Shown here: positions 38,201 to 62,200 of the stretch, piece by piece
How the letters are laid out: the number at the start of each line of letters is the position of its first letter
How positions within the stretch are numbered: the stretch's first letter is position 1
Origin: Candidatus Oxydemutatoraceae bacterium
GTDB taxonomy: Bacteria > Pseudomonadota > Gammaproteobacteria > Poriferisulfidales > Oxydemutatoraceae
Direction of reading: 5' to 3'
Length of the DNA stretch: 64,000 nt
NCBI GenBank assembly: GCA_965218975.1
Contig: OZ244717.1
Span: 896,001-960,000, forward strand
Notes under the pieces: generated by a model
The model's input: the letters and a program-made list of their open reading frames with translations, nothing else
Told to the model about the DNA's origin: nothing
Databases searched by the model: none
Translations under genes and position numbers: made by a program

Positions 38201-41200
38201 CGCGACGGATGCACCGGTATTGGCGGTAAACATTACGGCAGTTGAGGTCGGTGAAGTGCTTGCGACTGCAGCGCCTAGTACGGTTACTTTTGCTGCCGAT
38301 TCTGCGACAACGATGCTCAGCCTTGCCACCGTCATTGATGATACGTTCGGCGTCAGAACGATGACGGTTACCGTGAACGCCGGTGTGGGTTATGAGGTCG
38401 GTATTGAGAATAGCGCCGAGGTGCGAGTGGTTGACGTCAACGTGGCGCCGGTATTCAGCAGTTCGGAAAGTTTTGCGGTCAACGAAGAGCAGACGATAGT
38501 AGGCACGGTGACGGCTGCGGATGCAAACACGGAAGACGAGGTGACGTCGTATTCGGTTACCGGCGGTGCGGATGGTGCCTTGTTTACCTTCGCCGACCCA
38601 TCTTCGGGCGAGTTGAGTTTTGCCACTGCACCGGACTTTGAGAATCCGGCGGATGCGGATACGAACAACAACTACATGCTCATCGTGACGGCGACCGGCG
38701 GCACGGACGCTCGGGCGTTGACAACAACGCAAGAGATTGAGGTGACGGTGCTGGATGTGCCGACTACAATTACGATTACGGCGGACGAGGCAGAGGTCAC
38801 AGAAGGCGAACCGGCGATGTTTACACTCAGCCGGACAGACGCGACGGATGCGCCGGCATTGGCGGTAAACATTACGGTAGATGTGACCGTCGGAGTGCTT
38901 GCGGATGCGGCGCCTAGTACAGTGACTTTCGACACCGGTTCTGCGACAACGATGCTCAGCCTTGCCACCGTCATTGATGATACGTTCGGCGTCAGAACGG
39001 TGACGGTTACCGTGAACGTCGGTGTGGGTTATGAGGTCGGTATTGAGAATAGCGCCGAGGTGCGGGTTGTCGACGATGATCTGCTGCCGGACTTGGTTTT
39101 GTCGGTGAGCGCGACCACCATTGATGAAGGGGCATCAGCCGATATTACAATAGAGATCAAGAACGATTCGGTATTTACCGAAGATCAAACGATCACGTTA
39201 GAGTTTGACGGCGATGCGACGCCTGAGGAGGACTATGCGGTATTGGTTGAGAATTTACCGCTGTCGCCACCGTATGAGTTGATTTTGCCGGCGGGGGCAT
39301 CTGCGACAGTCGCAACGATAATGGCGAAGGCAGCCGACATGACGGATGAGGGGGATGAGACAATTATGATTACCGCCCGGCATGGTGGCGACACGATCGG
39401 CGAAGAGACGATCACGATCATTGATAACGTGGCGCCGGTATTCATCAGTGCGGCAAGTTTCGAGGTCAACGAGGGGCAGACGCTAGTCGGCACGGTAGTG
39501 GCTGAGGATGCCAATAGCCTAGACGATGTTCTGTACGTGGTTCAATCTAATGACTCTAATGACTCGTCGCCGGATAGCGCTCTGTTTTCAATCCTCTCGC
39601 TCACAGGCGTACTGAGATTCGAGACGGCGCCGGATTTTGAGGCTCCGGCAGATGCGGATATGAACAACGAATACATAATTACTATTTTGGCGTCCGATTT
39701 CAATGGGAGCCTAAGCAATCAAGGGTTAACGGCACGCCAAAGAGTTACCGTTATGGTGCGTAATGTGGTTGAGTCGACGGTAACGGTTACAGCGAACCAG
39801 GCGTCGGTGACGGAAGGCGAGTCGGCGATGTTCACGTTGGCTCGGACCGTGCCGACGGATACGGAATTAATGGTGAAGATTACGGTAGATGATCCCGGCG
39901 GAGCGCTTGCAACTGTAGCGCCTGAAATGGTTACTTTTGATGCCGGTTCTACGACAGCGGCACTCAGTCTTGTTACTATTGATGATGCGTTTGACGAAGC
40001 CGACAGCACACTGACGGTTACCGTTGTCGCCGGTATAGTTCATGAGGTCGGTATTGAGAATAGCGCTGAGGTGCGGGTAGTTGACGATGATCTGCTGCCG
40101 GAGTTGGTTTTGTTGGTGAGCGCGACCACCATTGATGAAGGGGCATCAGCCGATATTACAATAGAGATCAAGAACGATTCGGTATTTACCGAAGATCAAA
40201 CGATCACGTTAGAGTTTGACGGCGATGCGACGCCTGAGGAGGACTATGCGGTATTGGTTGAGAATTTACCGCTGTCGCCACCGTATGAGTTGATTTTGCC
40301 GGCGGGGGCATCTGCGACAGTCGCAACGATAATGGCGAAGGCAGCCGACATGACGGATGAGGGGGATGAGACAATTATGATTACCGCCCGGCATGGTGGC
40401 GACACGATCGGCGAAGAGACGATCACGATCATTGATAACGTGGCGCCGGTATTCATCAGTGCGGCAAGTTTCGAGGTCAACGAGGGGCAGACGCTAGTCG
40501 GCACGGTAGTGGCTGAGGATGCCAATAGCATAGACGATGATATCGCGTATGGAATTTTTGTTAATCCCTCGTATCTGGATAGCATTCTGTTTCCAATTTT
40601 AATCCACCAGTTCACAGGCGTACTGAGATTCGAGACGGCGCCGGACTTTGAGGCTCCGGCAGGTGCGGATATGAACAATGAGTACGTGTATGCTATTACG
40701 GCGAACAGTAGCAGAGGCACCGGTCGAGCGTTAACGACATTCCAAACGATTACCGTTATGGTGCGTAATGTGGTTGAGTCGACGGTAACGGTTACAGCGA
40801 ACCAGGCGTCGGTGACGGAAGGCGAGCCGGCGATGTTCACGTTGGCTCGGACCGTGCCGACGGATACGGAATTAATGGTGAAGATTACGGTAGATGATCC
40901 CGGCGGAGCGCTTGCAACTGTAGCGCCTGAAATGGTTACTTTTGATGCCGGTTCTACGACAGCGGCACTCAGTCTTGTTACTATTGATGATGCGTTTGAC
41001 GAAGCCGACAGCACGCTGACGGTTACCGTTGTCGCCGGTATAGTTCATGAGGTCGGTATTGAGAATAGCGCCGAGGTGCGGGTTGTCGACGATGATCTGC
41101 TGCCGGACTTGGTTTTGTCGGTGAGCGCGACCACCATTGATGAAGGGGCATCAGCCGATATTACAATAGAGATCAAGAACGATTCGGTATTTACCGAAGA

Positions 41201-44200
41201 TCAAACGATCACGTTAGAGTTTGACGGCGATGCGACGCCTGAGGAGGACTATGCGGTATTGGTTGAGAATTTACCGCTGTCGCCACCGTATGAGTTGATT
41301 TTGCCGGCGGGGGCATCTGCGACAGTCGCAACGATAATGGCGAAGGCAGCCGACATGACGGATGAGGGGGATGAGACAATTATGATTACCGCCCGGCATG
41401 GTGGCGACACGATCGGCGAAGAGACGATCACGATCATTGATAACGTGGCGCCGGTATTCATCAGTGCGGCAAGTTTCGAGGTCAACGAGGGGCAGACGCT
41501 AGTCGGCACGGTAGTGGCTGAGGATGCCAATAGCCTAGACGATGTTCTGTACGTGGTTCAATCTAATGACTCTAATGACTCGTCGCCGGATAGCGCTCTG
41601 TTTTCAATCCTCTCGCTCACAGGCGTACTGAGATTCGAGACGGCGCCGGATTTTGAGGCTCCGGCAGATGCGGATATGAACAACGAATACATAATTACTA
41701 TTTTGGCGTCCGATTTCAATGGGAGCCTAAGCAATCAAGGGTTAACGGCACGCCAAAGAGTTACCGTTATGGTGCTTGATGTGCCTACGACGATTACGAT
41801 TACGGCGGACAAAGCAGAGGTTACGGAAGGCGAGCCGGCGGTGTTTACATTCAGTCGGACCGACGCGACGGATGCGCCGGCATTGACAGTGAACATTACG
41901 ATAGATGCGACCGACGAAGTGCTTGCGGATGCGGCGCCTGGTATGGTGACTTTTGACGCCGGTTCTGCGAGAACGGTGCTTAGCCTTGCCACCGTCATTG
42001 ATGAGGCGTTTGGTGTCAGAACGGTGATGGTTACCGTGAACGACGGTGTGGGTTATGAGGTCGGTATTGAGAATAGCGCCGAGGTGCGGGTGATTGACGT
42101 CAACGTGGCACCGGTATTCAGCAGTGCGGAAAGTTTTGAGGTCAACGAAGGGGAGACGGTAGTCGGCACGGTGACGGCTGAGGATGCGAACATAGAAGAC
42201 GAAGTGACGTATTCGATTACCAACGGCGCGGATCAAGATCAGTTTACTATTAACTCGTCTTCGGGCGAGTTGAGTTTCGTCACCGCACCGGACTTTGAGA
42301 ATGCAGCGGATGCGGACGGAGACAATGCATACATGCTCACGGTGGCGGCAATCGGCGGCACGGACGCTCGGGCGTTGACGACGACGCAAGCGATTATGGT
42401 GACGGTGCTTGATGTGCCGACGACGATTACGATTACGGCAGACGAGCCGATGGTAACGGAAGGCGAGTCGGCGATGTTCACATTCAGCCGGACCGACGCG
42501 ACGGATGCGCCTGCATTGACGGTGAACATTACGGTAGATGATCCCGAGGGGGTGCTTGCGGCAGCGGCACCTGAAATGGTGACTTTTGCTGCCGATTCTG
42601 CGACAACGGCGCTCAACCTTGCCACCATTGATGATACGCTTGAAGAAGACGACAGCACGGTGACGGTTACCGTGAACGACGGTGTGGATTATGCGGTCGG
42701 TATTGAGAATAGTGCCGAGGTGCGGGTGAACGACAACGACGGGCCGTTCACGATCTCGTTCGTCCAGAGCGAATATACGTTCAATGAAAGGGACTCGGTA
42801 GTTGTCATGATCAGACTGAGCGGCGAAAGACCGCTGCGCGGCGCTGTAAGCGCTACTATCTCGACAATGGAAGGCAGCGCGCTCCATCCTGAGGATTATA
42901 CCCTGGTTAATTCTAGGTTTTCATTCGGCCCTAGCGATTCTATCCCTGCGCTGCGTTCTGAATCTCTTTCTCGTATCAATGACGCGATTTTCGAGACCGA
43001 AGAATTCTTTTCGGTGAGAATTAGATCTGTAATGGCATCGGATCCCGCCGATGAGGTGGTGATCGGTCAGGGCGAAGCGACGATTACCATCATTGATAAC
43101 GATTCGCCTCCTATCTGGAGTTTAGACATGTTGCCGAGTAGTGTCAGTGAAAGTAGGGACACCGCGGTGCCGATTGTGATGAAGCGGATGCGTGATTTAC
43201 TTGACAGAGGATATCCGCTGACGCTTGAGTTGGGGGGGACGGCGACGTTCGGCGAAGACTACGTTATCACGGATATGGATGACAATCCGTTCGCGTTACC
43301 GCTTACATTCCCTGCGCCGTATATTGCCGATGATGTGTTTGATCTTCGGACAGATAAAACAGTCGAATTCGGCTTAGTGATAACAGACGACGCGGTGTTT
43401 GAGGGAGCCGAGACGATTGAGCTGCGATTAACTACGACGGACCCTGACGTTACGATAGGCAGCGATACGACTCAGACGATCACGATCATTGACGACGATA
43501 CGACGCCGGTGTTGTCTCTGTCGGTGAGTGCGACCACCATTGAAGAGGGAGCATCGGTCGATATTACAGTGATGACGAACGAGTCGGTATATGCCGAAGA
43601 TCAAACGATCACGTTAGAGTTTGCCGGCGATGCGATGCCTGAGGACGACTATACGGTAATGGTCGACAGCTTGCCGCTGTCGTCGCCGTATGAGTTAACT
43701 TTGCCGGCGGGGTTGTCTTCGGTAACCGCAACGATCATGGCGACAGACGACCGAGCGGACGAAGCGAATGAGACGATCACACTAACCGCCCGGCATGAAG
43801 GCGACACAATCGGCGAGGAAACGATCACGATCATTGACGATGATGCGGCGCCGGAGTTGGATTTGTCGGTGAGCGAGACCACCATCGACGAAGGGGCATC
43901 GGGCGATATCGAAGTGGGAATCACGAACGAATCGGTATTTGCCGAAGATCAAACGATTACGTTAGAGTTTGCCGGCGAGGCGACGCCTGAGGACGACTAT
44001 ACGGTAATGGTCGGAGGTTCGTTGCTGTCGTCGCCGTATCAAGTGATTTTACCGGCGGGGTCGTCTTCGGTAAGCGCAATGATCATGGCGCTAATAGACG
44101 ACATGACGGCTGAGGGGAATGAGACGATTATGATTACCGCCCGGCATGAAGGTGAAATGATCGGCGAGGTAACGATCACGATCATTGATAACACGGCGCC

Positions 44201-47200
44201 GGTCTTCAGCGATGCGGTAAGTTTTGAGGTCGACGAAGGACAGACGACGGTCGGCGTTGTGACGGCTGAGGATGCGAACCCGCAAGACGAGGCAATGTAT
44301 TCGGTTACCGGCGGTGCGGATGATGCCCTGTTTGATATCGACTCGTCTTCGGGTGAATTGAGTTTCGTCACCGCGCCGGACTTTGAGAATGCGGTGGATG
44401 CGGATACGGATAACGTTTATATGCTCATCGTGACGGCGATCGGCGGCACGGACGCTCGAGCGTTGACGACGACGCAAGAGATTACGGTGACGGTGCTTGA
44501 TGTGCCGACGACGGTCACGATTACGGCGGCGGAGCCGACGGTAACGGAAGGTGAGCCGGTAATGTTCACGTTTGAGCGGACCGACGCGACGGATGCGCCG
44601 GCATTGACGGTGAACATTACGATAGATGCGACCGACGAAGTGCTTGCGGATGTGGCGCCTGGTATGGTGACTTTCGACGCCGGTTCTGCGAGAACGGTGC
44701 TTAGCCTTGCCACCGTCATTGATGAGGCGTTTGGCGTCAGAACGGTGATGGTTACCGTGAACGACGGTGTGGGTTATGAGGTCGGTATTGAGAATAGCGC
44801 CGAGGTGCGGGTGATTGACGTCAACGTGGCACCGGTATTCAGCAGTGCGGAAAGTTTTGAGGTCAACGAAGGGGAGACGGTAGTCGGCACGGTGACGGCT
44901 GAGGATGCGAACATAGAAGACGAAGTGACGTATTCGATTACCAACGGCGCGGATCAAGATCAGTTTACTATTGACTCGTCTTCGGGCGAGTTGAGTTTCG
45001 CCACCGCACCGGACTTTGAGAATGCAGCGGATGCGGACGGAGACAATGCATACATGCTCACGGTGGCGGTAATCGGCGGCACGGACGCTCGGGCGTTGAC
45101 GACGACGCAAGCGATTATGGTGACGGTGCTTGATGTGCCGACGACGATTACGATTACGGCAGACGAGCCGATGGTAACGGAAGGCGAGCCGGCGGTGTTC
45201 ACGTTCAGCCGGACCGACGCGACGGATGCGCCTGCATTGACGGTGAACATTACGGTAGACGATTCCGGCGGAGTGCTTGCGGATGCGGCGCCTGATACGA
45301 TTACTTTTGACGCCGATTCTGCGACAACGGTGCTCAACCTTGCCACCATTGATGATACGCTTGAAGAAGACGACAGCACGGTGACGGTTACCGTGAACGA
45401 CGGTGTGGATTATGCGGTCGGTATTGAGAATAGTGCCGAGGTGCGGGTGAACGACAACGACGGGCCGTTAACGATCTCGTTCGTCACGACCGAGTATATG
45501 GTCAATGAAAGCGATAGAGAGGTAAGGTTCGAACTCAGACTGAGCGACGAAAGACCGCTGCGCGGCAATATAAACGTTGGCTTAACGGCACGCGACGGCA
45601 GCGCGGTCCTTACTGAGGATTATTCCCCGAGAGGTAGTGTTACTATCTATACTCCTATATCAGTTCTGATGAGAACTGTGCAGTATTTCATTATCGATGA
45701 CGATGTCTTCGAAACCGAAGAATTCTTTTCGTTGAGGATTTCCGGTGTAACGACGTTTCATAGCGACGATGAGGTGGTGATCGGTCAGGGGCGCGTAGCG
45801 ACGGTTACCATCATTGATGACGATTTGCCTCCTATCTGGAGTTTGGACATGTTGCCGAGTAGTGTCAGTGAAAGTAGGGACACCGCGGTGCCGATTGTGA
45901 TGAGGCGGATGCGTGATTTACTTGACAGAGGATATCCGCTGACGCTTGAGTTGGGGGGGACGGCGACGTTCGGCGAAGACTACGTTATCACGGATATGGA
46001 TGACAATTCGTTCGCGTTACCGCTTACATTCCCTGCGCCGTATATTGCCGATGATGTGTTTGATCTTCGGACAGATAAAACAGTCGAATTCCGCTTAGTG
46101 ATAACAGACGACGCGGTGTTTGAGGGAGCCGAGACGATTGAGCTGCGATTAACTACGACGGACCCTGACGTTACGATAGGCAGCGATACGACTCAGACGA
46201 TTACGATCATCGACAACGATGCGGTGCCGGTGTTGTCTCTGACGGTCGGTGCAACCGCAATCAATGAAGGCGCATTGACCGATATCGAAGTGGGAATCAC
46301 GAACGAGTCGGTATATGCCGAAGATCAAACGATCACGTTAGAGTTTGCCGGCGATGCGATGCCTGAGGACGACTATACGGTAATGGTCGGAGATTCGCCG
46401 TTGTCATCGCCGTATGTGTTGACTTTGCCGGCGGGGTTGTCTTCGGTAAGCGCAACGATCATGGCGACAGACGACATGACGGCTGAGGGGAATGAGACGA
46501 TCACACTAACCGCCCGGCATGAAGGCGACACGATCGGCGAGGCAATGATTACGATCATTGACGATGATGCGGCGCCGGAGTTGGATTTGTCGGTGAGCGA
46601 GACCACCATTGACGAAGGAGTATCAGCCGATATTACGCTAGAAATCACGAACGAATCGGTATTTGCCGAGAATCAAACGATTACGTTAGAGTTTGACGGC
46701 ACGGCAACGGAGGATGACTATACGCTATCGGCTGAGAATTTACCGCTGTTGCCGCCGCATGAGTTGATTTTACCGGCGGGGTCGTCTTCGGTAAGCGCAA
46801 TGATCATGGCGCTAATAGACGACATGACGGCTGAGGGGAATGAGACGATTATGATTACCGCCCGGCATGAAGGCGAAATGATCGGCGAGGTAACGATCAC
46901 GATCATTGATAACACGGCGCCGGTCTTCAGCGATGCGGTAAGTTTTGAGGTCGACGAAGGACAGACGACGGTCGGCGTTGTGACGGCTGAGGATGCGAAC
47001 CCGCAAGACGAGGCAATGTATTCGATTACCGGTGGGGCGGATGATGCCCTGTTTGATATTGACTCGTCTTCGGGTGAGTTGAGTTTCGCCACCGCACCGG
47101 ACTTTGAGAATGCGGCGGATGCGGATACGGATAACGTTTATGTGCTCACGGTGACGGCAATCGGCGGCACGGACGCTCGAGCGTTGACGACGACGCAAGA

Positions 47201-50200
47201 GATTACGGTAACGGTGCTTGATGTGCCTACGACGGTCACGATTACGGCGGCGGAGCCGACGATAACGGAAGGCGAGTCGGCGGTGTTTACATTCAGTCGG
47301 ACCGACGCGACGGATGCGCCGGCATTGACGGTGAACATTACGATAGATGCGACCGACGAAGTACTTGCGGATGCGGCGCCTGAAATGGTGACTTTCGACG
47401 CCGGTTCTGCGAGAACGGTGCTTAGCCTTGCCACCGTCATTGATGAGGCGTTTGGCGTCAGGACGGTGATGGTTACCGTGAACGACGGTATGGGTTATGA
47501 GGTCGGTATTGAGAATAGCGCCGAGGTGCGGGTGATTGACGTCAACGTGGCACCGGTATTCAGCAGTTCGGAAAGTTTTGAGGTCAACGAAGGGCAGACG
47601 GTAGTCGGCACGGTGACGGCTGAGGATGCGAACATAGAGGACGAGGTGATGTATTCGATTACCAACGGCGCGGATCAAGATCAGTTTACTATTGACCCGT
47701 TTTCGGGCGAGTTGAGTTTCGCCACCACACCGGACTTTGAGAATCCGGCGGATGCGGATACGGATAACGTTTATATGCTCATCGTGACGGCAGTCAGCGG
47801 CACGGACGCTCGGGCATTGACGACGACGCAAGAGATTGCGGTGACGGTGCTTGATGTGCCGACGACGATCACGATTACGGCAGAAGACCCGACGGTCACG
47901 GAAGGCGAGCCGGCGGTGTTCACGTTCAGCCGGACCGAGGCGACGGATGCGCCTGCATTGACGGTGAACATTACGGTAGACGATTCCGGCGGAGTGCTTG
48001 CGGATGCGGCGCCTGATACGATTACTTTTGCTGCCGATTCTGCGACAACGGCGCTCAGTCTTGCCACCGACGACGATACGCTTGAAGAAGACGGCAGCAC
48101 GGTGACGGTTACCGTCATAGGCGGTATGGATTATGCGGTCGGTATTGAGAACAGTGCTTCGGTGCGGGTTGTCGACAACGACGTTAACGTGGCGCCGGCA
48201 TTCATCAGTGCAGCAAGTTTTGATGTCAACGAAGGGGAGACGGTAGTCGGTACGGTGACGGCTGCGGATGCGAACATAGAAGACGAGGTGATGTATTCGA
48301 TTACCGGCGATGCGGATGATGTTTTGTTTGCAATTGACCCGTCTTCGGGCGAGTTGAGTTTCGCCACCGCACCGGACTATGAGAATCCGGCGGATGCGGA
48401 TACGGATAACGTTTATATGCTCATCGTGACGGCAACCGGCGGCACGGACGCTCGGGCGTTGACGACGACGCAAGCGATTACGGTGACGGTGCTTGATGTG
48501 CCTACGACGATTACGATTACGGCGGCAGAGCCGATGGTAACGGAAGGCGAGCCGGCGGTGTTCGTGTTTGAGCGGACCGACTCGACGAATGTGTCGGAAT
48601 TGAATGTGTTCTTTACGGTAGATGATCCCGGCGGAGTGCTTGTGCTTCCAAAGCCTTTTGCTCTTTCTTTTGGAGCTGCTGGAGCTGCTTCCGAGACAGC
48701 GATGCTCAGCCTTGCCACCATTGATGACGCGCTTGAAGAAGACGACAGCACGGTGACGGTTACCGTTGGTGCCCATATGAATTATGAGGTCGGCATTGAG
48801 AATAGTGCCGAGGTGCGGGTTGTCGACAACGACGTCAACGTGGCGCCGGCATTCATCAGTGCAGCAAGTTTTGAGGTCAACGAAGGGGAGACGGTAGTCG
48901 GCACGGTGACGGCTGCGGATGCGAATATAGAAGACGAGGTGACGTATTCGGTTATCGGCGGTGCGGATGATGCCTTGTTTGATATCGACTCGTCTTCGGG
49001 CGAACTGAGCTTCACAACCGCACCGGACTATGAGAATCCGGTGGATGCGGATGAAGACAATAACTACATGCTCACGGTGGTGGCAATCGGCGGCACGGAC
49101 GTTCGGACGTTGACGACGACGCAAGCGATTACGGTGACGGTGCTTGATGTGCCTACGACGATCACGATTACGGCGGCAGAGCCGATGGTAACGGAAGGCG
49201 AGCCGGCGGTGTTTACATTCAGTCGGACCGACGCGACGGATGCGCCGGTATTGGCGGTGAACATTACGGTAGATGATTCCGACGGGGTGCTTGCGGCAGC
49301 GGCACCTGAAATGGTGACTTTTGACGCCGGTTCTGCGATAACGGTGCTCAACCTTGCCACTATTGATGATACGCTTGAAGAAGACGACAGCACGGTGACG
49401 GTTACCGTTGTTGCCACTACGGATTATGAAGTCGGTATTGAGAACAGTGCTTCGGTGCGGGTTGTCGACAACGACGTCAACGTAGCGCCGGTATTCACCA
49501 GTGCAGCAAGTTTTGAGGTCAACGAAGGGCAGACAGTAGTCGGCACAGTGACGGCTGCGGATGTGAACATAGAGGACGAGGTGATGTATTCGATTACCGG
49601 CAGCGCGGATCAAGATCAGTTTACTATTGACCCGTCTTCGGGTGAGTTGAGTTTCGCCGCTGCACCGGACTTTGAGAATCCGACGGATGCGGACGGAGAC
49701 AATGCATACATGCTCACAGTGGCGGCAATCGGCGGCACGGACGTTCGGGCGTTGACGACGACGCAAGCGATTACCGTCAGAGTGCTTGATTTGCCGGTAA
49801 TAACGATTGCGGCAGTCGAGCCGATGGTAACGGAAGGCGAGCCGGCGGTGTTCGTGTTTGAGCGGACCGACGCGACGGATGTGTTGGATTTGTTTGTGTT
49901 CTTTACGGTAGTTGAGTCCGGCGAGGTGCTTGTGGTTCCAACGCCTGCTGGTATTTCTTTTAGACCTGCTTCCGAGACAGTGATGCTCAGCGTTGCCACC
50001 ATTGATGATACGCTTGAAGAAGACGACAGCACGGTGACGGTTACCATTGGTGTCGACGATACGGGTTTTTATGAAGTCGGTATTGAGAACAGTGCCGAGG
50101 TGCGGGTTGTCGACAACGACGTCAACGTAGCGCCGGTATTTACGAGTGCGGAAAGTTTTGAGGTCAACGAAGGGCAGACGTTAGTCGGCACGGTGACGGC

Positions 50201-53200
50201 TGAGGATGCGAACATGGGGGATGAGGTGACCTATTCGGTTACTGGCGGTGCGGATGGCACCCTGTTCACCATTGACCCGTCTTCGGGCGAGTTGAGTCTC
50301 GCCACTGCACCGGACTATGAGAATCCGGCGGATGCGGATACGGATAACGTTTATATGCTCACGGTGGCGGCAATCGGCGGCACGGACGCTCGAGCGTTGA
50401 CGACGACACAAGGGATTACGGTGACGGTGCTTGATGTGCCTACGACGATCACGATTACGGCGGACAAAGCAGAGGTTACGGAAGGCGAGCCGGTAATGTT
50501 TACATTCAGTCGGACCGACGCGACGGATGCGCTTGCATTGGCGGTGAACATTACGGTAGATGATCTCGACGGGGTGCTTGCGGCAGCGGCACCTGAAATG
50601 GTGACTTTTGCTGCCGGTTCTGCGACAGCGGAGCTCAGTCTTGCCACCGACGACGATACGCTTGAAGAAGACGACAGCGTAGTGACGGTTACCATCATAG
50701 ACAGTGCGGACTATAGGATCGGTATTGAGAACAGTGCTTCGGTGCGTGTTGTCGACGACGACGTCAACGTGGCGCCGGCATTCATCAGTGCAGCAAGTTT
50801 TGAGGTCAACGAAGGGCAGCCAGTAGTCGGTACGGTGACGGCTGCGGATGCGAACATAGAAGACGAGGTGATGTATTCGATTACCGGCGATGCGGATGAT
50901 GCCCTGTTTGATATCGACTCGTCTTCGGGCGAGTTGGGTTTCGCCACTGCACCGGACTTTGAGAATGCAGCGGATGCGGATACGGATAACGTTTATATGC
51001 TCATCGTGACGGCAACCGGCGGCACGGACGCTCGGGCGTTGACGACGACGCAAGCGATTACGGTGACGGTGCTTGATGTGCCTACGACGATTACGATTAC
51101 GGCGGCAGAGCCGATGGTAACGGAAGGCGAGCCGGCAGTGTTCGTGTTTGAGCGGACCGACTCGACGAATGTGTCGGAATTGAATGTGTTCTTTACGGTA
51201 GATGATCCCGGCGGAGTGCTTGTGCTTCCAAAGCCTTTTGCTCTTTCTTTTGGAGCTGCTGGAGCTGCTTCCGAGACAGCGATGCTCAGCCTTGCCACCA
51301 TTGATGATGCGCTTGAAGAAGACGACAGCACGGTAACGGTTACCGTTGGTGCCCATATGAATTATGAGGTCGGCATTGAGAATAGTGCCGAGGTGCGGGT
51401 TGTCGACAACGACGTCAACGTGGCACCGGTATTCAGCGATCCGGTAAGTTTTGAGGTCAACGAAGGGGAGACGGTAGTCGGCACGGTGACGGCTGAGGAT
51501 GCGAACCCGCAAGACGAGGTGAGGTATTCGGTTACCGGCGGTGCGGATGATGCCCTGTTTGATATCGACTCGTCTTCGGGCGAACTGAGCTTCACAACCG
51601 CACCGGACTATGAGAATCCGGCGGATGCGGATACGGATAACGTTTATATGCTCATCGTGACGGCGGCCGGCGGCACGGGTGCTCGGGCGTTGACGACGAC
51701 GCAAGAGATTACGGTGACGGTGCTTGATGTGCCGACTACAATTACGATTTTTGCTGACGAACCGACGGTAACGGAAGGCGAGCTGGCGGTGTTCACGTTG
51801 AATCGGACCGCGCCGACGGATACGGGATTATTGGTGGAGATTGAGGTAGTTGATTCCCCCGACGGAACGGTAGTCGGTAACCCCGGTGGAGCGCTTATGG
51901 TTTTGATACCTGATATGATTACTTTTAGGGCCGGTTCTACGACAGCGGTGCTCAGTCTTGCCACCATTGATGATATGATTGATGAAGCCGACAGCACGCT
52001 GACGGTTACCGTTGTTGAAGGGATGAGTTATGAGGTTGGTATCGAGAATAGCGCCGAGGTGCGGGTTGTCGACAACGATGACGTACCGGGTGCGCCGGCG
52101 GAATTAGCAGCCGCAGCGGGCGACACGCACGCAGTCCTAAGTTGGGAAGCGCCTGCCGACCCCGGCACTTCGCCGATTGAGCGTTACGAATATCGCGCGA
52201 GCAGTGACGCCGGAACGATTGGGGATCAGGAATGGAATGCCGCCGGCGATGCGACGGGCGAAGTCAGAACTCAAATCGTATCGAGCTTAAGCAACGACAC
52301 GGAATACACATTTGAAGTACGCGCGGTCAGCGCGGCGGGCAACGGTGCAGCCGCGCAAATCACGGCGACACCGAGTTCCGAGACGGCGGTATTCACTCTG
52401 ACGTTTGACCCGAGCGAATATACGCTCACTGAAAGTGACCAGAGGGTAACTCTCACGCTCAGACTGATCGGCGAAGAGCGTGCGCTGCAAGATGATGTAA
52501 CCGTTACTGTCTCGACACACGACGGCAGCGCGGTCACTCCTCAGGATTATGTGGCTATTGAGAATGCGACGGTTGTCTTTGAACCCGAAGAGGGCGTGAC
52601 CGAGTTAACGCAAACGGTGACGGTTCAGATTGTCAATGACATCGTTTTTGAGTTAGATGACGAGATCTTTTCGGTGATTATTAACGATGTAACGGCGGCG
52701 ACTTCCAGCGACACGGTCGTGATTGATCAAGGCGAAGCGACGGTTACCATCGTCGATGACGGCGGCCCACCGATTTGGGTATTGGACCGGTTGCCGAGTT
52801 CTGTCGGTGAAAGCACGGGCACCGTGTCGATTGAGATGAGGCGCGTGTCGATTGTTAATTCTGATACTAACCGCGGGTATTCGCTGACGCTTGAGCTGGG
52901 AGGGACGGCGACGTTCGGCGACGACTACGTCATCACGGATATAGACGGCAATCCGTTGGCGTCGCCGCCTACATTCGATATAGCGCAAAACCAAACAATG
53001 CTTGAAGCCCGCCTGATAATAACGGACGATAGGGTGTTTGAGGGCGAGGAGACGATTGAGATACGCTTGAGCACGACCGAGCCGAAGATCCTGATAGACG
53101 ACGCTACGACGCAGACGATCACGCTCATCGACAACGATGCAGCGCCGGAGTTAGATTTGTCGGTGAGTGCGGTAGCGATTGACGAAGGGGCATCGGTTGA

Positions 53201-56200
53201 TATTACGCTAGAGATCACGAACGAATCGGTATTTGCTGAGGATCAAACGATTACATTAGAGTTTACCGGCGATGCGATGCCTGAGGACGACTATACGGTA
53301 TCGGTCGACGGTTCGCCGCTGTTACCGCCGTATGAGTTGACTTTAACGGCGGGAGAATCTGCGCTAAACGCAACGATCATGGCGCTAATAGACGACATGA
53401 CGGCTGAGGGAGATGAGACGATTACACTAACCGCGCGGCATGGTGACGACACAATCGGCGAGGAAACGATCACAATCATTGATAACGAGGCGCCGGTATT
53501 CAGCAGTATGCCAAGTTTTGAGGTCAACGAAGGGGAGACGATAGTCGGCACGGTGACGGCTGAGGATGCGAACATAGAGGACGAGGTGATGTATTCGGTT
53601 ACCGGTGACGGTGCGGATGATGTCTTGTTTGATGTCGACTCGTCTTCGGGCGAACTGAGCTTCATAACCGCACCGGACTATGAGAATCCGGCGGATGCGG
53701 ATACGGATAACGTTTATATGCTCATCGTGACGGCGGCTGGCGGCACGGACGTTCGGGCGTTGACGACGACACAAGCGATTACGGTGACGGTGCTTGATGT
53801 GGCTACGACGATTACGATTACGGCAGACGAGCCGATGGTCACGGAAGGCGAGCCGGCGATGTTCACGTTCAGCCGGACCGACGCGACGGATGCGCTTGCA
53901 TTGACGGTGAACATTACGGTAGATGATTCCGGCGGAGTGCTTGCGGATGCGGCGCCTGATACGATTACTTTTGCTGCCGATTCTGCGACAACGGCGCTCA
54001 ACCTTGCCACCATTGATGATACGCTTGAAGAAGACGACAGCACGGTGACGGTTACCGTCATAGGCGGTATGGATTATGCGGTCGGTATTGAGAATAGTGC
54101 CGAGGTGCGGGTGAACGACAACGACGTTAACGTGGCGCCGGCATTCATCAGTGCAGCAAGTTTTGATGTCAACGAAGGAGAGACGGTAGTCGGCACGGTG
54201 ACGGCTGGGGATGCGAACCCGCAAGACGAGGTAACGTATTCGGTTACCGGCGGTGCGGATGATGCCCTGTTTGATATCGACTCGTCTTCGGGCGAACTGA
54301 GCTTCACAACTGCACCGGACTATGAGAATCCGGCAGATGCGGATACGGATAACGTTTATATGCTCATCGTGACGGCGGCCGGCGGCACGGACGCTCGGGC
54401 GTTGACGACGACGCAAGCGATTACGGTGACGGTGCTTGATGTGCCTACGACGATTACGATTACGGCGGCAGAGCCGATGGTAACGGAAGGCGAGCCGGCG
54501 GTGTTCGTGTTTGAGCGGACCGACGCGACGGATGCGCCGACATTGACAGTGAACATTACGATAGATGCGACCGACGAAGTGCTTGCGGATGCGGCGCCTG
54601 GTATGGTGACTTTTGACGCCGGTTCTACGACAACGGTACTTAGCCTTGCCACTGTCATTGATGAAATGTTTGGTGTCAGAACGGTGACGGTTACCGTGAA
54701 CGACGATGTGGATTATGCGGTCGGTATTGAGAATAGCGCCGAGGTGCGGGTGATTGACGTCAACGTGGCGCCGGTATTCAGTGAGCCGGTGAGTTTTGAC
54801 ATTGATGAGAGTCTGACAGTAGTCGGCACGGTGACGGCTGAGGATGCGAACATAGAAGACGAGGTGATGTATTCGGTTACCGGTGACGGTGCGGATGATG
54901 CTCTGTTTGATATCGACTCGTCTTCGGGCGAACTGAGCTTCACAACCGCACCGGACTATGAGAATCCGGCGGATGCGGATACGGATAACGTTTATATGCT
55001 CATCGTGACGGCGGTCGGCGGCACGGACGCTCGAGCGTTGACGACGACACAAGGGATTACGGTGACGGTGCTTGATGTGCCGACGACGGTCACGATTACG
55101 GTGGCAGAGCCGATGGTAACGGAAGGCGAGTCGGCGGTGTTTACATTCAGTCGGACCGACGTGACGGATGCGCCGGCATTGACAGTGAACATTACGATAG
55201 ATGCGACCGACGAAGTGCTTGCGGATGCGGCGCCTGGTATGGTGACTTTTGACGCCGGTTCTGCGAGAACGGTGCTTAGCCTTGCCACCGTCATTGATGA
55301 GGCGTTTGGCGTCAGGACGGTGATGGTTACCGTGAACGACGGTGTGGGTTATGAGGTCGGTATTGAGAATAGCGCCGAGGTGCGGGTGATTGACGTCAAC
55401 GTGGCACCGGTATTCAGCAGTGCGGAAAGTTTTGAGGTCGACGAAGGGGAGACGGTAGTCGGCACGGTGACGGCTGAGGATGCGAACATAGAAGACGAAG
55501 TGACGTATTCGATTACCAACGGCGCGGATCAAGATCAGTTTACTATTGACCCGTCTTCGGGCGAGTTGAGTTTCGTCACCGCACCGGACTTTGAGAATGC
55601 AGCGGATGCGGACGGAGACAATGCATACATGCTCACGGTGGCGGCAATCGGCGGCACGGACGCTCGGGCGTTGACGACGACGCAAGCGATTATGGTGACG
55701 GTGCTTGATGTGCCGACGACGATTACGATTACGGCAGACGAGCCGATGGTAACGGAAGGCGAGCCGGCGGTGTTCACGTTCAGCCGGACCGAGGCGACGG
55801 ATGCGCTGGCATTGACGGTGAACATTACGGTAGACGATTCCGGCGGAGTGCTTGCGGATGCGGCGCCTGATACGATTACTTTTGCTGCCGATTCTGCGAC
55901 AACGGCGCTCAGTCTTGCCACCGACGATGATACGCTTGAAGAAGACGACAGCACGGTGACGGTTACCGTGAACGACGGTGTGGATTATGCGGTCGGTATT
56001 GAGAACAGTGCCGAGGTGCGGGTGAACGACAACGACGGGCCGTTCACGATCTCGTTCGTCCAGAGCGAATATACGTTCAATGAAAGGGACTCGGCAGTTG
56101 TCATGATCAGACTGAGCGGCGAAAGACCGCGGCGCGGCAATGTAACGGTTACGGTTGATGCACACGACGGCAGCGCGGTTTTTATTGAGGATTATGGGTT

Positions 56201-59200
56201 GCGTAGTAGCGGTCTTATCTTTTTTCCTACCGTAATGCTGAGATCTGAGAGGTTTATTACTATTGATAACGCGGTTGTCGAGACCGAAGAATTCTTTTCG
56301 GTGAGAATTAGATCTGTAATGGCATCGGATCCCGCCGATGAGGTGGTGATCGGTCAGGGCGAAGCGACGATTACCATCATTGATAACGATTCGCCTCCTA
56401 TCTGGAGTTTAGACATGTTGCCGAGTAGTGTCAGTGAAAGTAGAGACACCGCGGTGCCGATTGTGATGAAGCGGATGCGTGATTTACTTGACAGAGGATA
56501 TCCGCTGACGCTTGAGTTGGGGGGGACGGCGACGTTCGGCGAAGACTACGTTATCACGGATATGGATGACAATCCGTTCGCGTTACCGCTTACATTCCCT
56601 GCGCCGTATATTGCCGATGATGTGTTTGATCTTCGGACAGATAAAACAGTCGAATTCCGCTTAGTGATAACAGACGACGCGGTGTTTGAGGGAGCCGAGA
56701 CGATTGAGCTGCGATTAACTACGACGGACCCTGACGTTACGATAGGCAGCGATACGACTCAGACGATCACGATCATCGACAACGATGCGGTGCCGGTATT
56801 GTCTCTAACGGTCGGTGCGACCACCATTGAAGAGGGAGCATCGGTCGATATTACAGTGATGACGAACGAGTCGGTATATGCCGAAGATCAAACGATCACG
56901 TTAGAGTTTGCCGGCGATGCGATGCCTGAGGACGACTATACGGTAATGGTCGACAGCTTGCCGCTGTCGTCGCCGTATGAGTTGACTTTGCCGGCGGGGT
57001 TGTCTTCGATAACCGCAACGATCATGGCGACAGACGACCGAGCGGACGAAGCGAATGAGACGATCACACTAACCGCCCGGCATGAAGGCGACACAATCGG
57101 CGAGGAAACGATCACGATCATTGACGATGATGCGGCGCCGGAGTTGGATTTGTCGGTGAGCGAGACCACCATCGACGAAGGGGCATCGGGCGATATCGAA
57201 GTGGGAATCACGAACGAATCGGTATTTGCCGAAGATCAAACGATTACGTTAGAGTTTGCCGGCGAGGCGACGCCTGAGGGCGACTATACGGTAATGGTCG
57301 GAGGTTCGTTGCTGTCGTCGCCGTATCAAGTGATTTTACCGGCGGGGTCGTCTTCGGTAAGCGCAATGATCATGGCGCTAATAGACGACATGACGGCTGA
57401 GGGGAATGAGACGATTATGATTACCGCCCGGCATGAAGGCGACATGATCGGCGAGGAAACGATCACGATCATTGATAACGTAGCGCCGGCATTCAGCGAT
57501 GCGGTAAGTTTTGCGGTCAACGAAGGACAGACGACGGTCGGCGTTGTGACGGCTGAGGATGCGAACCCGCAAGACGAGGCAATGTATTCGATTACCGGTG
57601 GGGCGGATGATGCCCTGTTTGATATTGACTCGTCTTCGGGTGAGTTGAGTTTCGCCACTGCACCGGACTATGAGAATCCGGCGGATGCGGATACGGATAA
57701 CGTTTATGTGCTCACGGTGACGGCAATCGGCGGCACGGACGCTCGAGCGTTGACGACGACGCAAGAGATTACGGTAACGGTGCTTGATGTGCCTACGACG
57801 GTCACGATTACGGCAGACAAGGCAGAGGTCACGGAAGGCGAGTCGGCGGTGTTTACATTCAGTCGGACCGACGCGACGGATGCGCCGGCATTGACGGTGA
57901 ACATTACGGTAGATGATCCTGCCGGAGCGCTTGCGACTGCGCTGCCTGGTATGGTGACTTTTGACGCCGGTTCTGCGAGAACGGTGCTTAGCCTTGCCAC
58001 CGTCATTGATGAGGCGTTTGGCGTCAGGACGGTGATGGTTACCGTGAACGATGGTATGGGTTATGAGGTCGGTATTGAGAATAGCGCCGAGGTGCGGGTG
58101 ATTGACGTCAACGTGGCACCGGTATTCAGCGATGCGGAAAGTTTTGAGGTCAACGAAGGGCAGACGGCAATCGGCACGGTGACGGCTGCGGATGCGAACA
58201 TAGAAGACGAGGTGATGTATTCGGTTACCGGCGGGGCGGATGATGCTCTGTTTGCAATTGACTCGTCTTCGGGCGAATTGAGTTTCGCCACCGCACCGGA
58301 CTATGAGAATCCGGCGGATGCGGATGAAGACAATAACTACATGCTCATCGTGACGGCGGCCGGCGGCACGGACGCTCGGGCGTTGACGACGACGCAAGCG
58401 ATTACGGTGACGGTGCTTGATGTGCCGACGACGATCACGATTACGGCAGAAGACCCGACGGTCACGGAAGGCGAGCCAGCGGTGTTCACGTTCAGCCGGA
58501 CCGACGCGACGGATGCGCTTGCATTGACGGTGAACATTACGGTAGACGATTCCGGCGGAGTGCTTGCGGATGCGGCGCCTGATACGATTACTTTTGCTGC
58601 CGATTCTGCGACAACGGCGCTCAGTCTTGCCACCGACGACGATACGCTTGAAGAAGACGACAGCACGGTGACGGTTACCGTCATAGGCGGTATGGATTAT
58701 GCGGTCGGTATTGAGAATAGTGCCGAGGTGCGGGTGAACGACAACGACGTTAACGTGGCGCCGGCATTCATCAGTGCAGCAAGTTTTGAGGTCAACGAAG
58801 GGGAGACGGTAGTCGGCACGGTGACGGCTGAGGATGCGAACCGGCAAGACGAGGTAACGTATTCGGTTACCGGCGGTGCGGATGATGCCTTGTTTGATAT
58901 CGACTCGTCTTCGGGCGAACTGATCTTCACAACTGCACCGGACTATGAGAATCCGGCAGATGTGGATACGGATAACGTTTATATGCTCATCGTGACGGCG
59001 GCCGGCGGCACAGACGCTCGGGCATTGACGACGACGCAAGAGATTACGGTGACGGTGCTTGATGTGCCTACGACAATTACGATTACGGCGGACAAAGCAG
59101 AGGTTACGGAAGGCGAGTCGGTGGTGTTTACATTCAGTCGGACCGACGCGACGGATGTGCCAAATTTGTTTGTGAACATTACGGTAGTTGCAACCGACGA

Positions 59201-62200
59201 AGTGCTTGCGGATGCGGCGCCTGGTATGGTGACTTTTGACGCCGGTTCTACGACAACGGTACTTAGCCTTGCCACTGTCATTGATGAAATGATTGGCGAC
59301 AGAACGGTGACGGTTACCGTGAACGACGGTGTGGATTATGCGGTCGGTATTGAGAATAGTGCTGAGGTGCGGGTGGTTGACGTCAACGTGGCGCCGGTAT
59401 TCAGCAGTATGCCAAGTTTTGAGGTCAACGAAGGGGAGACGGTAGTCGGCACGGTGACGGCTGAGGATGCGAACCCGCAAGACGAGGCAATGTATTCGAT
59501 TACCGGTGGGGCGGATGAGACCTTGTTCACCATTGACGACCCGTCTTCGGGTGAATTGAGTTTCGTCACCGCGCCGGACTTTGAGAATGCGGCGGATGCG
59601 GATGCGGATAACGTTTATATGCTCATCGTGACGGCAATCGGCGGCACGGACGCTCGAGCGTTGACGACGACGCAAGAGATTACGGTGACGGTGCTTGATG
59701 TGGCTACGACGATCACGATTACGGCGGACAAAGCAGAGGTTACGGAAGGCGAGCTGGCGGTGTTTACATTCAGTCGGACCGACGCGACGGATGCGCTGGC
59801 ATTGACGGTGAACATTACGGTAGATGATCCTGCCGGAGCGCTTGCGACTGCGCTGCCTGGTATGGTGACTTTTGACGCCGGTTCTGCGCGAACGGTGCTT
59901 AGCCTTGCCACCGTCATTGATGAGGCGTTTGGCGTCAGGACGGTGATGGTTACCGTGAACGACGGTATGGGTTATGAGGTCGGTATTGAGAATAGCGCCG
60001 AGGTGCGGGTGATTGACGTCAACGTGGCACCGGTATTCAGCAGTGCGGAAAGTTTTGAGGTCGACGAAGGGGAGACGGTAGTCGGCACGGTGACGGCTGC
60101 GGATGCGAACATAGAAGACGAGGTGATGTATTCGGTTACCAACGGCGCGGATCAAGATCAGTTTACTATTGACCCGTCTTCGGGCGAATTGAGTTTCGCC
60201 ACCGCACCGGACTTTGAGAATGCGGCGGATGCAGATACGGATAACGTTTATATGCTCATCGTGACGGCGGCCGGCGGCACGGACGCTCGGGCGTTGACGA
60301 CGACGCAAGAGATTGCGGTGACGGTGCTTGATGTGGCTACGACGATTACGATTACGGCAGAAGACCCGACGGTCACGGAAGGCGAGCCGGCGGTGTTCAC
60401 GTTCACCCGGACCGACGCGACGGATGCGCTGGCATTGACGGTGAACATTACGGTAGACGATTCCGGCGGAGTGCTTGCGGATGCGGCGCCTGATACGATT
60501 ACTTTTGACGCCGATTCTGCGACAACGGTGCTCAACCTTGCCACCATTGATGATACGCTTGAAGAAGACGACAGCACGGTGACGGTTACCGTGAACGACG
60601 GTGTGGATTATGCGGTCGGTATTGAGAATAGTGCCGAGGTGCGGGTGAACGACAACGACGGGCCGTTAACGATCTCGTTCGTCACGACCGAGTATATGGT
60701 CAATGAAAGCGATAGAGAGGTAAGGTTCGAACTCAGACTGAGCGACGAAAGACCGCTGCGCGGCAATATAAACGTTGACTTAACGGCAAGCGACGGCAGC
60801 GCGGTCCTTCATGAGGATTATTCCCCGAGAGTTAGTGTTACTATCTATACTCCTATATCAGTTCTGATGAGAACTGTGCAGTATTTCATTATCGATGACG
60901 ATGTCTTCGAAACCGAAGAATTCTTTTCGTTGAGGATTTCCGGTGTAACGACGTTTCATAGCGACGATGAGGTGGTGATCGGTCAGGGGCGCGTAGCGAC
61001 GGTTACCATCATTGATGACGATTTGCCTCCTATCTGGAGTTTGGACATGTTGCCGAGTAGTGTCAGTGAAAGTAGGGACACCGCGGTGCCGATTGTGATG
61101 AGGCGGATGCGTGATTTACTTGACAGAGGATATCCGCTGACGCTTGAGTTGGGGGGGACGGCGACGTTCGGCGAAGACTACGTTATCACGGATATGGATG
61201 ACAATTCGTTCGCGTTACCGCTTACATTCCCTGCGCCGTATATTGCCGATGATGTGTTTGATCTTCGGACAGATAAAACAGTCGAATTCCGCTTAGTGAT
61301 AACAGACGACGCGGTGTTTGAGGGAGCCGAGACGATTGAGCTGCGATTAACTACGACGGACCCTGACGTTACGATAGGCAGCGATACGACTCAGACGATT
61401 ACGATCATCGACAACGATGCGGTGCCGGTGTTGTCTCTGACGGTCGGTGCAACCGCAATCAATGAAGGCGCATTGACCGATATCGAAGTGGGAATCACGA
61501 ACGAGTCGGTATATGCCGAAGATCAAACGATCACGTTAGAGTTTGCCGGCGATGCGATGCCTGAGGACGACTATACGGTAATGGTCGGAGATTCGCCGTT
61601 GTCATCGCCGTATGTGTTGACTTTGCCGGCGGGGTTGTCTTCGGTAACCGCAACGATCATGGCGACAGACGACATGACGGCTGAGGGGAATGAGACGATC
61701 ACACTAACCGCCCGGCATGAAGGCGACACAATCGGCGAGGAAACGATTACGATCATTGACGATGATGCGGCGCCGGAGTTGGATTTGTCGGTGAGCGAGA
61801 CCACCATTGACGAAGGCGCATTGACCGATATTGAAGTGGGAATCACGAACGAGTCGGTATATGCCGAAGATCAAACGATCACATTAGAGTTTGCCGGTGA
61901 GGCGACGCCTGAGGACGACTATACAGTAATGGTCGGAGGTTCGTTGCTGTCGTCGCCGTATCAAGTGATTTTACCGGCGGGGTCGTCTTCGGTAAGCGCA
62001 ATGATCATGGCGCTAATAGACGACATGATGGCTGAGGGGAATGAGACGATTATGATTACCGCCCGGCATGAAGGCGAAATGATCGGCGAGGTAACGATCA
62101 CGATCATTGATAACACGGCGCCGGTCTTCAGCGATGCGGTAAGTTTTGAGGTCGACGAAGGACAGACGACGGTCGGCGTTGTGACGGCTGAGGATGCGAA

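Follow-up and report, generated by a model that had tools for sequence, protein, structure and literature searches.

The 64,000-nucleotide stretch analysed here (the window) covers bases 896001-960000 of the genome of Candidatus Oxydemutatoraceae bacterium, which is assembled as a single contig of 2,081,000 bases (47.7% G+C, 99.44% complete). It contains the beginning of a giant open reading frame (ORF) on the forward strand, which starts at window position 32235 and runs past the window end to position 90878 (contig 928235-986878). This ORF spans 58,644 nucleotides (nt) and encodes 19,547 amino acids (aa) with neither an internal stop nor an N, and its first 10,588 codons lie inside the window (32235..64000). 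The gene is built of tandem super-repeats of approximately 4.6 and 9.3 kb, each of which holds one pair of Calx-beta domains, and the first domain of this pair, here termed X, is the variable element under study. As we argue below, X differs strongly between copies with near-identical flanks because recombination moves pieces of it from copy to copy and because amino-acid changes are retained there.

The N-terminus of the giant protein is a signal-peptide-like sequence of the Sec type. A motif map of the protein gives the order (cadherin - T domain)n and then X-P-S-S, where P denotes the 'PPIW' domain, with a tally of 13 X, 12 P, 5 fn3, and approximately 55 cadherin-like starts; Pfam matches in the same protein are to cadherin, Calx-beta, and fn3. 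The C-terminus consists of GGGGGAVGLWFILLMLASVAASRR followed by a short basic tail, so ordered that a Gly-rich, a hydrophobic, and a basic part succeed one another. GlyGly-CTERM signals are described as a motif rich in Gly and Ser, after which come a hydrophobic stretch and basic residues, and as being cut by rhombosortase (PMC6219818). A rhombosortase is encoded elsewhere in the genome (TIGR03902, 141.8 bits against a cut-off of 84; contig 43033-43494, reverse strand), and the same Gly-rich, hydrophobic, and basic tail is found on 8 of the 13 genome ORFs of at least 1,500 codons. The tail of the giant protein is probably cut by this rhombosortase, although its TIGR03501 (GlyGly-CTERM) score of 15.1 bits (E=0.155) falls short of the cut-off of 15.5 and tells against that assignment. 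Within the last 800 residues we found neither RTX repeats nor a C-terminus of the type I secretion system (T1SS) kind; here Pfam gives fn3 only, and NCBIfam gives only sub-threshold matches to choice-of-anchor U and MXAN_2561. By its predicted domains, the giant protein appears to be a fibrillar surface protein of the calcium type, made of cadherin and Calx-beta domains. Taken together, the 13 ORFs with 1,500 codons or more amount to 63,033 codons, or 9.1% of the 2.08-Mb genome, and giant ORFs that occupy about 9% of a genome must therefore matter to the organism. At 19,547 codons the ORF ranks among very large bacterial genes: proteins of more than 5,000 aa are rare, according to part of one report (PMC11573180), and larger bacterial proteins have been reported from curated metagenome-derived sequences, as stated in a portion of another (10.1101/2023.11.21.568195).

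Five X copies lie in the window, all on the forward strand. Copy 1 (42741..43118) is of type alpha, with its variable centre at approximately 42843-43001, and is followed by a PPIW domain at 43119..43505. Copy 2 (45462..45839) is of type gamma and carries the haplotype gamma0, with its PPIW domain at 45840..46226, while copy 3 (52392..52778) belongs to the C type and stands between an fn3 domain and a diverged PPIW domain (approximately 52779-53120). Copy 4 (56037..56405) is of type beta, with alpha-type ends around a beta-type centre (approximately 56139-56288) and a PPIW domain at 56406..56792, and copy 5 (60660..61037) is of type gamma, haplotype gamma1, with its PPIW domain at 61038..61424. 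A second gamma1 copy, one base different from that at 60660, lies at contig 1815122-1815499 on the reverse strand, in a paralogue of 9,164 aa. A previous reading of the window from its letters and translations (the sequence-only reading) had placed the copies at 42741, 45462, 56037, and 60660 where we find them, and the peptides it quoted agree with the translation; the remaining copy, put at 52380, is present, but its true start is four codons downstream at 52392. All five do end in PPIW with a conserved domain next, as had been described. The five recurrences then counted are right for the window, but the giant gene holds 13 X copies, made up of 12 X-P modules and one X without P, and the genome holds 33 by tblastn.

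These 33 copies sit in ORFs of 19,552, 9,164, 7,845, 5,903, 5,254, and 2,547 codons and in an interrupted stretch near 742 kb. Eight giant-gene copies and two paralogue copies form a close clade of alpha, beta, and gamma types. The alpha type is found at residues 3503 and 17454 of the giant protein; the beta type at residue 7935, in the 5,903-aa gene, and in a mosaic at residue 11022; and the gamma type as gamma0 at residue 4410, as gamma1 at residue 9476 and in the 9,164-aa gene, and as gamma2 at residues 12565 and 16546. All other X copies, including that at 52392, are of the C type and have an fn3 domain before them. Close relatives of X were absent from 40 related genomes, in which matches of at most 38% identity occurred in 5 of the 40, and likewise from JGI metagenome contigs (74 loci, all at most 43% identical) and from GTDB species genomes (5 loci, all at most 34%), own or near-own genome records possibly being outside these last two collections. 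Related genomes (G006, G034, and others; loci L002-L008) do have long open frames (2,021-7,976 codons) in which Calx-beta modules occur. Their identity to the present gene is only 28-38%, which suggests rapid turnover of the gene family from genus to genus.

Both profile and structural comparisons identify X as a genuine Calx-beta domain that resembles NCX1 CBD1. Against a Pfam PF03160 (Calx-beta) cut-off of 27, copy 42741 scores 45.2 bits and copy 52392 scores 60.9 bits, and a profile built from 25 X copies (alignment A1) matches NCX1 CBD1/CBD12 in the PDB with E=2e-19. An AlphaFold (AF2) model of X+P shows two beta-sandwiches with a mean predicted local distance difference test (pLDDT) score of 82.6. 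The best Foldseek matches of this model are the CBD12 tandems of NCX1 and CALX (E=8e-14), and comparison with the seven-strand beta-sandwich of CBD1 alone (3gin, 2dpk) gives template modelling (TM) scores of 0.86-0.89 and a root-mean-square deviation of 1.6-2.0 A. Since the match is to a CBD1-CBD2 tandem, the 'PPIW' domain is a second Calx-beta fold and X+P a CBD12-like pair. The setting is a different one, however: in NCX1 and CALX the tandem belongs to the cytoplasmic regulatory loop of a transporter, whereas here the unit occurs 12 times in one protein that would form an extracellular bacterial fibre. Across the 25 aligned copies the framework motifs EY..NE, DGSA, EDY, ETEE.FS, and IIDDD are kept in all X types while most other positions vary, and the conserved acidic residues and motifs include E16, D52, ETEE, and IIDDD, candidates for the acidic loop residues with which Calx-beta domains coordinate Ca2+.

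For the comparison of copies we divided X into the segments S1, S2 (the central ~50 codons), and S3. Megablast merges its high-scoring segment pairs into long 94% alignments, and the sub-units were compared instead by ungapped offset comparison. Among the alpha, beta, and gamma copies, S2 has a protein identity of 29-46% against 95-98% for the adjoining PPIW domain. The sequence-only reading had remarked that copies 42741 and 56037 have common ends and a different core, and the variable-site comparison agrees: the two share ~100 nt at the 5' end of the domain and ~120 nt at its 3' end and differ between these. Equally borne out, by the ungapped comparison, is its claim of four amino-acid-changing codons between 45462 and 60660 with identical downstream sequence. 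Five nt differ, in 4 codons (GGC/GAC, CGC/AGC, ACT/CAT, and GGT/GTT), all of them amino-acid changing, and the two copies otherwise agree at every base over a stretch that begins 595 nt before the PPIW codons and ends 621 nt after them. Compared with the copy at residue 12565, which lies outside the window, copy 60660 shows 11 differing nt, all within a 100-nt cluster (60778..60877, forward strand) and all non-synonymous, the remainder of 3,385 nt being identical; the chance bound for such clustering is ~6e-15. The sites that separate gamma1 from gamma0 are 60778, 60789, 60810, 60811, and 60832, and those that separate gamma2 from gamma0 are 60837, 60855, 60856, 60867, 60873, and 60877.

Nucleotide diversity (pi) among ten close copies peaks in X at 0.18-0.32, compared with 0.003-0.09 in the flanks, where smaller maxima reach 0.12-0.16. 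In a series of four adjoining 4.6-kb sub-units the top three 90-nt windows (0.20-0.24) are the X domain, typical windows lie at 0.01-0.04, and the next island reaches 0.165, so X is the most variable patch of the repeat and not the sole one. Smaller divergence islands between the 4.6-kb sub-units (pi 0.10-0.165) are located at window positions ~59077, 57817, and 59347-59794, and one such island is a dimorphic patch in a T-type domain, which reads either ITIDATDEVLADAAP or ITVDDPAGALATALP. The S2 distance among alpha, beta, and gamma is 1.5-2.6 per codon, and that to the C type is 2.3-2.7; the corresponding P-domain distances are 0.05-0.08 and 1.1-1.2. To judge from these distances, the stark contrast reflects the homogenisation of the flanks no less than rapid change at the centre.

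Evidence of exchange comes from blocks of the variable-site table that are shared between copies and from trees built for four segments, which conflict. In copy 56037 the outer ~100 nt (5') and ~120 nt (3') are of alpha type, and the bases enclosed by them are of beta type. In the segment trees it is identical or near-identical to alpha in S1 and S3, whereas its S2 falls among those of the beta copies (support 98), and alpha has a branch of 0.52 in that tree. A further mosaic, at residue 11022, combines ends that it shares with the beta copy in the 5,903-aa gene with a gamma1-like patch (NINVD.TAS) and a gamma-like 3' end, and the C-type copy of the 5,254-aa gene falls in the 52392 clade for S2 (support 100) and in a different clade for S1 and S3. 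Exchange also reaches across the genome. The 9,164-aa paralogue lies 858 kb away on the opposite strand and matches the giant gene at 88% identity over 4.7 kb, yet it shows a single difference from 60660 between ~260 nt before and ~420 nt after the start of the gamma1 domain. This tract of ~680 nt, which spans the whole domain, indicates a recent gene conversion event. Gene conversion may act to homogenise or to diversify, a distinction drawn in one account (PMC3924843). As the gamma1 haplotype occurs at two loci, the four codons of 60660 are not fresh mutations made in place. We also saw no silent donor cassettes: every frame-checked copy is in frame within an ORF of 2,547-19,552 codons. From these alignments and trees, the X copies are recombinant mosaics of a few old segment alleles. 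The targeted mutagenesis that the sequence-only reading had proposed finds no support in this mosaic structure, nor in a gamma1 haplotype that stands, one base altered, in a second gene, nor in haplotypes that return unchanged in contigs from other samples.

Selection was assessed with our own pairwise GY94 fits and with parsimony counts on the segment trees. In the alpha/beta/gamma clade the ratio of non-synonymous to synonymous rates (dN/dS) was 2.78 in S1, 1.42 in S2, and 1.19 in S3 (0.86, 2.31, and 0.80 substitutions per codon, respectively), compared with 0.45 in the P domain (0.32 substitutions per codon). Summed over X, 30.3 synonymous and 149.7 non-synonymous changes give a dN/dS of 1.51 (binomial p=0.034), and the contrast between X and P in this clade is significant (Fisher odds ratio 3.5, p=0.0012). 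This value of 1.51 includes the invariant framework codons, and the remaining sites must therefore be higher. Within types, the changed codons are 0 synonymous and 12 non-synonymous (p 0.011-0.041), and the flanks of three comparable pairs hold 9-13 synonymous versus 20-28 non-synonymous; four pairs with indels were left out of these flank counts, since the ungapped comparison shifts their frame and so yields 145-227 spurious 'non-synonymous' flank codons. Maximum-likelihood omega exceeded 1 for S2 in 10 of 13 pairs and was below 1 for the P domain in 12 of 13. At the least, X tolerates replacements, and in the alpha/beta/gamma clade these are probably favoured.

We consider it reasonably probable that the pattern arises jointly from homogenised repeats, piecewise exchange of X, and replacements that are tolerated or favoured in the X centre. 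Unequal recombination and homogenising gene conversion keep most of each repeat near-identical, both within the gene and between giant paralogues. The CBD1-like domain is exchanged piecewise among the 33 genomic copies, with breakpoints near conserved framework motifs, so that the copies are mosaics of the old segment alleles alpha, beta, gamma, and C. Replacements in the central strands and loops of X would be tolerated or favoured and homogenisation resisted there, and an island of divergence would therefore persist inside uniform repeats. The outcome would be a fibre that displays approximately eight fixed variants of one domain every 380-2,300 residues. In functional terms, this would likely serve the recognition of varied ligands or surfaces, or else escape from something that recognises the fibre. 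An antibody-like repertoire, as the sequence-only reading had it, overstates the case, since the gene carries about eight fixed, germline-encoded domain sequences.

Several results weigh against this joint explanation and its selective component. The omega of S2 is significantly above 1 in only 2 of the 13 pairs and significantly below 1 in one, and tree-based dN/dS over all 25 copies is 0.70 in S1, 0.82 in S2, 0.55 in S3, and 0.62 in P. Among the 15 C-type copies, X has a dN/dS of 0.54-0.75 compared with 0.67 for P (p=0.54) and is no more variable than P. S2 is near saturation (1.5-2.7 substitutions per codon) and carries indels, so omega estimates are fragile; pairs and copies are non-independent, and recombination violates the tree models. 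Relaxed constraint could yield an S2 omega near 1. Finally, a donor search of the genome with 11-15-mers left 9 of the 11 gamma1- or gamma2-specific bases without a donor; the two matched bases are both gamma1-specific and common to the residue-11022 copy. Simple copy-paste from extant copies is rejected for those nine bases, which must therefore be point mutations or imports from donors not present here. With selection evidence of this modest kind, selection for diversity is plausible and not proven. Of the two earlier claims that bear on this, diversifying selection is modestly supported by the dN/dS of 1.51 versus 0.45 next door but not by the values of 0.55-0.82 over 25 copies, and hypervariability does not extend to the C-type subfamily of 52392.

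The strongest competitor, to which we give an appreciable though clearly smaller chance, is that X consists of ancient paralogous lineages under relaxed constraint (omega ~1) and that homogenisation of the flanks alone accounts for the contrast, with no selection for diversity. S2 distances among alpha, beta, and gamma that match those to the C type, next to P-domain distances of only 0.05-0.08, are what such ancient lineages would give, and the dN/dS range over all 25 copies, the C-type copies without contrast to their neighbouring domain, and the largely non-significant tests for omega above 1 point the same way. However, the absence of synonymous changes beside 12 non-synonymous ones within types, and a dN/dS of 1.51 reached in alpha, beta, and gamma X despite invariant framework codons, are at odds with relaxed constraint, and 11 changes confined to 100 nt of an otherwise identical 3.4 kb call for selection that opposes homogenisation or for some source of change that acts locally.

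A bolder version of the joint explanation, which we think doubtful, treats the 33 cassettes, spread over six giant co-directionally readable adhesin genes and the interrupted stretch, as a combinatorial surface-variation system without silent loci. Conversion at the sub-domain level between framework motifs, perhaps together with local mutation independent of reverse transcriptase (RT) in the central 100-150 nt, would keep making variants, all displayed at once under pressure from phages, grazers, or a host. This would be a germline 'repertoire on a filament' held against concerted evolution.

A source of change local to the X centre and independent of RT, such as error-prone repair or micro-conversion from lost or other-strain donors, is in our view very unlikely to be the main cause. 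It would account for the position of all 11 gamma differences, every one non-synonymous, within 100 nt and for the nine bases without a genomic donor, and the transition:transversion counts of the alpha, beta, and gamma copies (77:103 in X versus 31:10 in the neighbouring P domain) could be taken for the mark of an unusual mutational process. Saturation and selected replacements would, however, be expected to lower the transition share, the gamma haplotypes number only three and are stable across runs of two studies, and no candidate enzyme or sequence signal was found. The contigs in which the haplotypes were followed are, for their part, unable to show rare variants.

These contigs come from six public runs of two studies in which window DNA was found. 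The runs are kept as contigs (Logan), which show haplotype presence only and not the absence of rare variants, and the assembly itself may derive from the first study. Two runs of one study, X1 and X2, are of high depth, and in both the core is on a contig identical to the window; run X1 also holds a contig with the 5 gamma0 differences, and run X2 one with all 11 gamma2 differences. A 309-nt contig with the 11-difference haplotype was found in a run of the second study. In all, contigs of 4 runs from the two studies carry the assembled gamma0, gamma1, and gamma2 haplotypes at the exact assembled positions, and no other variants appear in the 100-nt cluster among the matches listed, contigs being prone to drop rare variants. 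Run X5 has only gamma0/gamma2-type bases at the gamma1 sites at a depth of ~10, from which nothing is concluded, and run X6 has no cover over the core. The differences between copies are genuine, and read errors, which the sequence-only reading had left as a possible source, are excluded by the assembled haplotypes in run contigs of two studies. An artefact of assembly or polishing, with a collapsed or chimeric consensus in the 58-kb repeat array, is accordingly highly improbable: multi-kb identical repeats are indeed hard to assemble, but the contigs of four runs reproduce the haplotypes, the differences are frame-keeping substitutions, and the same haplotype stands at a second locus with different flanks. 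As a side observation, the summed contig word depth of runs X1 and X2 over window 60000-61700 is 10-50x higher over cadherin and T-type domains than over X and PPIW domains, a contrast that fits many more near-identical cadherin and T-type copies, although contig depth is not copy number.

Clustered, mostly non-synonymous differences in a surface-protein domain with identical flanks would also be expected from a diversity-generating retroelement (DGR) or from other templated, adenine-specific mutagenesis rewriting X. The closed genome gave 0 matches to RT (PF00078), whereas a control search was positive in 3 of 14 genomes. In 42 ordered copy pairs, adenines of the putative template accounted for 0.17-0.60 of the mismatches at an adenine base frequency of 0.23, which amounts to no adenine bias, and the alpha, beta, and gamma types are separated by indels of 1-3 codons. 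No stand-alone non-coding template was seen among the 33 X copies, all frame-checked copies being in long open frames without internal stops. The sequence-only reading, which saw no RT in the window and thought indels contrary to a simple DGR, is thus extended to the whole genome. With haplotypes that recur across loci and samples, and with an internal domain of Calx-beta fold in place of a C-terminal C-type lectin or Ig variable region, a DGR is rejected, and barring an RT on an unsequenced plasmid or phage we regard it as refuted for this genome and the least probable of all the explanations. No RT or other dedicated mutator is involved in the variation.

In several known systems one or another aspect of this locus recurs. 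Cadherin-like and Calx-beta repeats in Ca2+-dependent adhesins (BapP, LapA, SiiE, and CabC/CabD of Saccharophagus) are presented in part of one report as Ca2+-stiffened extenders (PMC12153261). The giant protein resembles these adhesins in its long runs of cadherin-like and Calx-beta beta-sandwiches. Unlike them, it has no RTX/T1SS C-terminus in its last 800 residues and combines a signal-like N-terminus with a GlyGly-CTERM-like tail and a genomic rhombosortase; it is also several times larger, and its extender is non-uniform, with divergent domains at periodic intervals. Substrates of the GlyGly-CTERM system such as VesB of Vibrio cholerae share with it the tripartite tail, which here accompanies a rhombosortase in the genome and recurs on eight long ORFs, but the known ones, as far as the excerpted source goes, are enzymes of ordinary size and not giant fibres, and the TIGR03501 score remains 15.1 against 15.5. 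In antigenic and phase variation by segmental gene conversion, as in vlsE, pilE/pilS, tprK, and MgPar, mosaic segments are swapped among paralogous cassettes with breakpoints in conserved framework, as is the case for X. Differences from the vlsE/pilE type are that the present system has neither silent donors nor a single expression site and that its host is not a known pathogen; contigs of the 4 runs, which drop rare variants, show only the assembled haplotypes. With DGRs the locus shares only the clustered non-synonymous variation in a surface-protein domain, and it differs from them in RT, template repeat, adenine bias, indels, fold, and position in the protein.

Giant repeat adhesins are usually described as uniform extenders with binding domains only at their tips. 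In a literature search on variable Calx-beta repeats, none among the matches listed named Calx-beta, from which we do not claim absence from print. What appears new is the combination of a giant, probably rhombosortase-anchored fibre with a periodic CBD12-like module in which the first domain evades concerted evolution and is passed from one paralogue to another. Should its divergence be under selection, X would be the part of the fibre that is 'seen' by the environment, whether by ligands, phages, or grazers, and the locus would offer a clear example from nature of bacterial concerted evolution being countered by selection. More generally, no retroelement is needed for non-synonymous changes to cluster between identical flanks in the manner of a DGR, which is useful to bear in mind when screening genomes for diversifiers.

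Two irregularities were observed among the repeats themselves. Just upstream of the X copy at residue 16546 (contig ~977800) there is a 5-codon insertion, GYIGGMDAVG replacing DYAVG, which looks like a small duplication or slippage. At contig 741900-754035, directly after the 7,845-codon ORF, tandem units of ~350 nt that are 77-82% identical to the S-type domain that comes after the PPIW domain lie in short open frames of 189-1,669 codons, and this stretch may represent either a giant gene that frameshifts or stops have interrupted or a fault of the assembly.

Upstream of the giant ORF the window carries housekeeping genes (ruvAB, tol-pal, queC, trp genes, and rpe) and one DDE transposase, and no secretion or diversification gene adjoins the giant ORF among the window genes. 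The tol-pal, ruvAB, and trp genes point to a Gram-negative bacterium. The transposase ORF (window 17175-18878, reverse strand; PF01609, 51.9 bits) has a G+C content of 0.57 compared with ~0.48 around it, and this stretch, set among housekeeping genes, looks like an insertion sequence.

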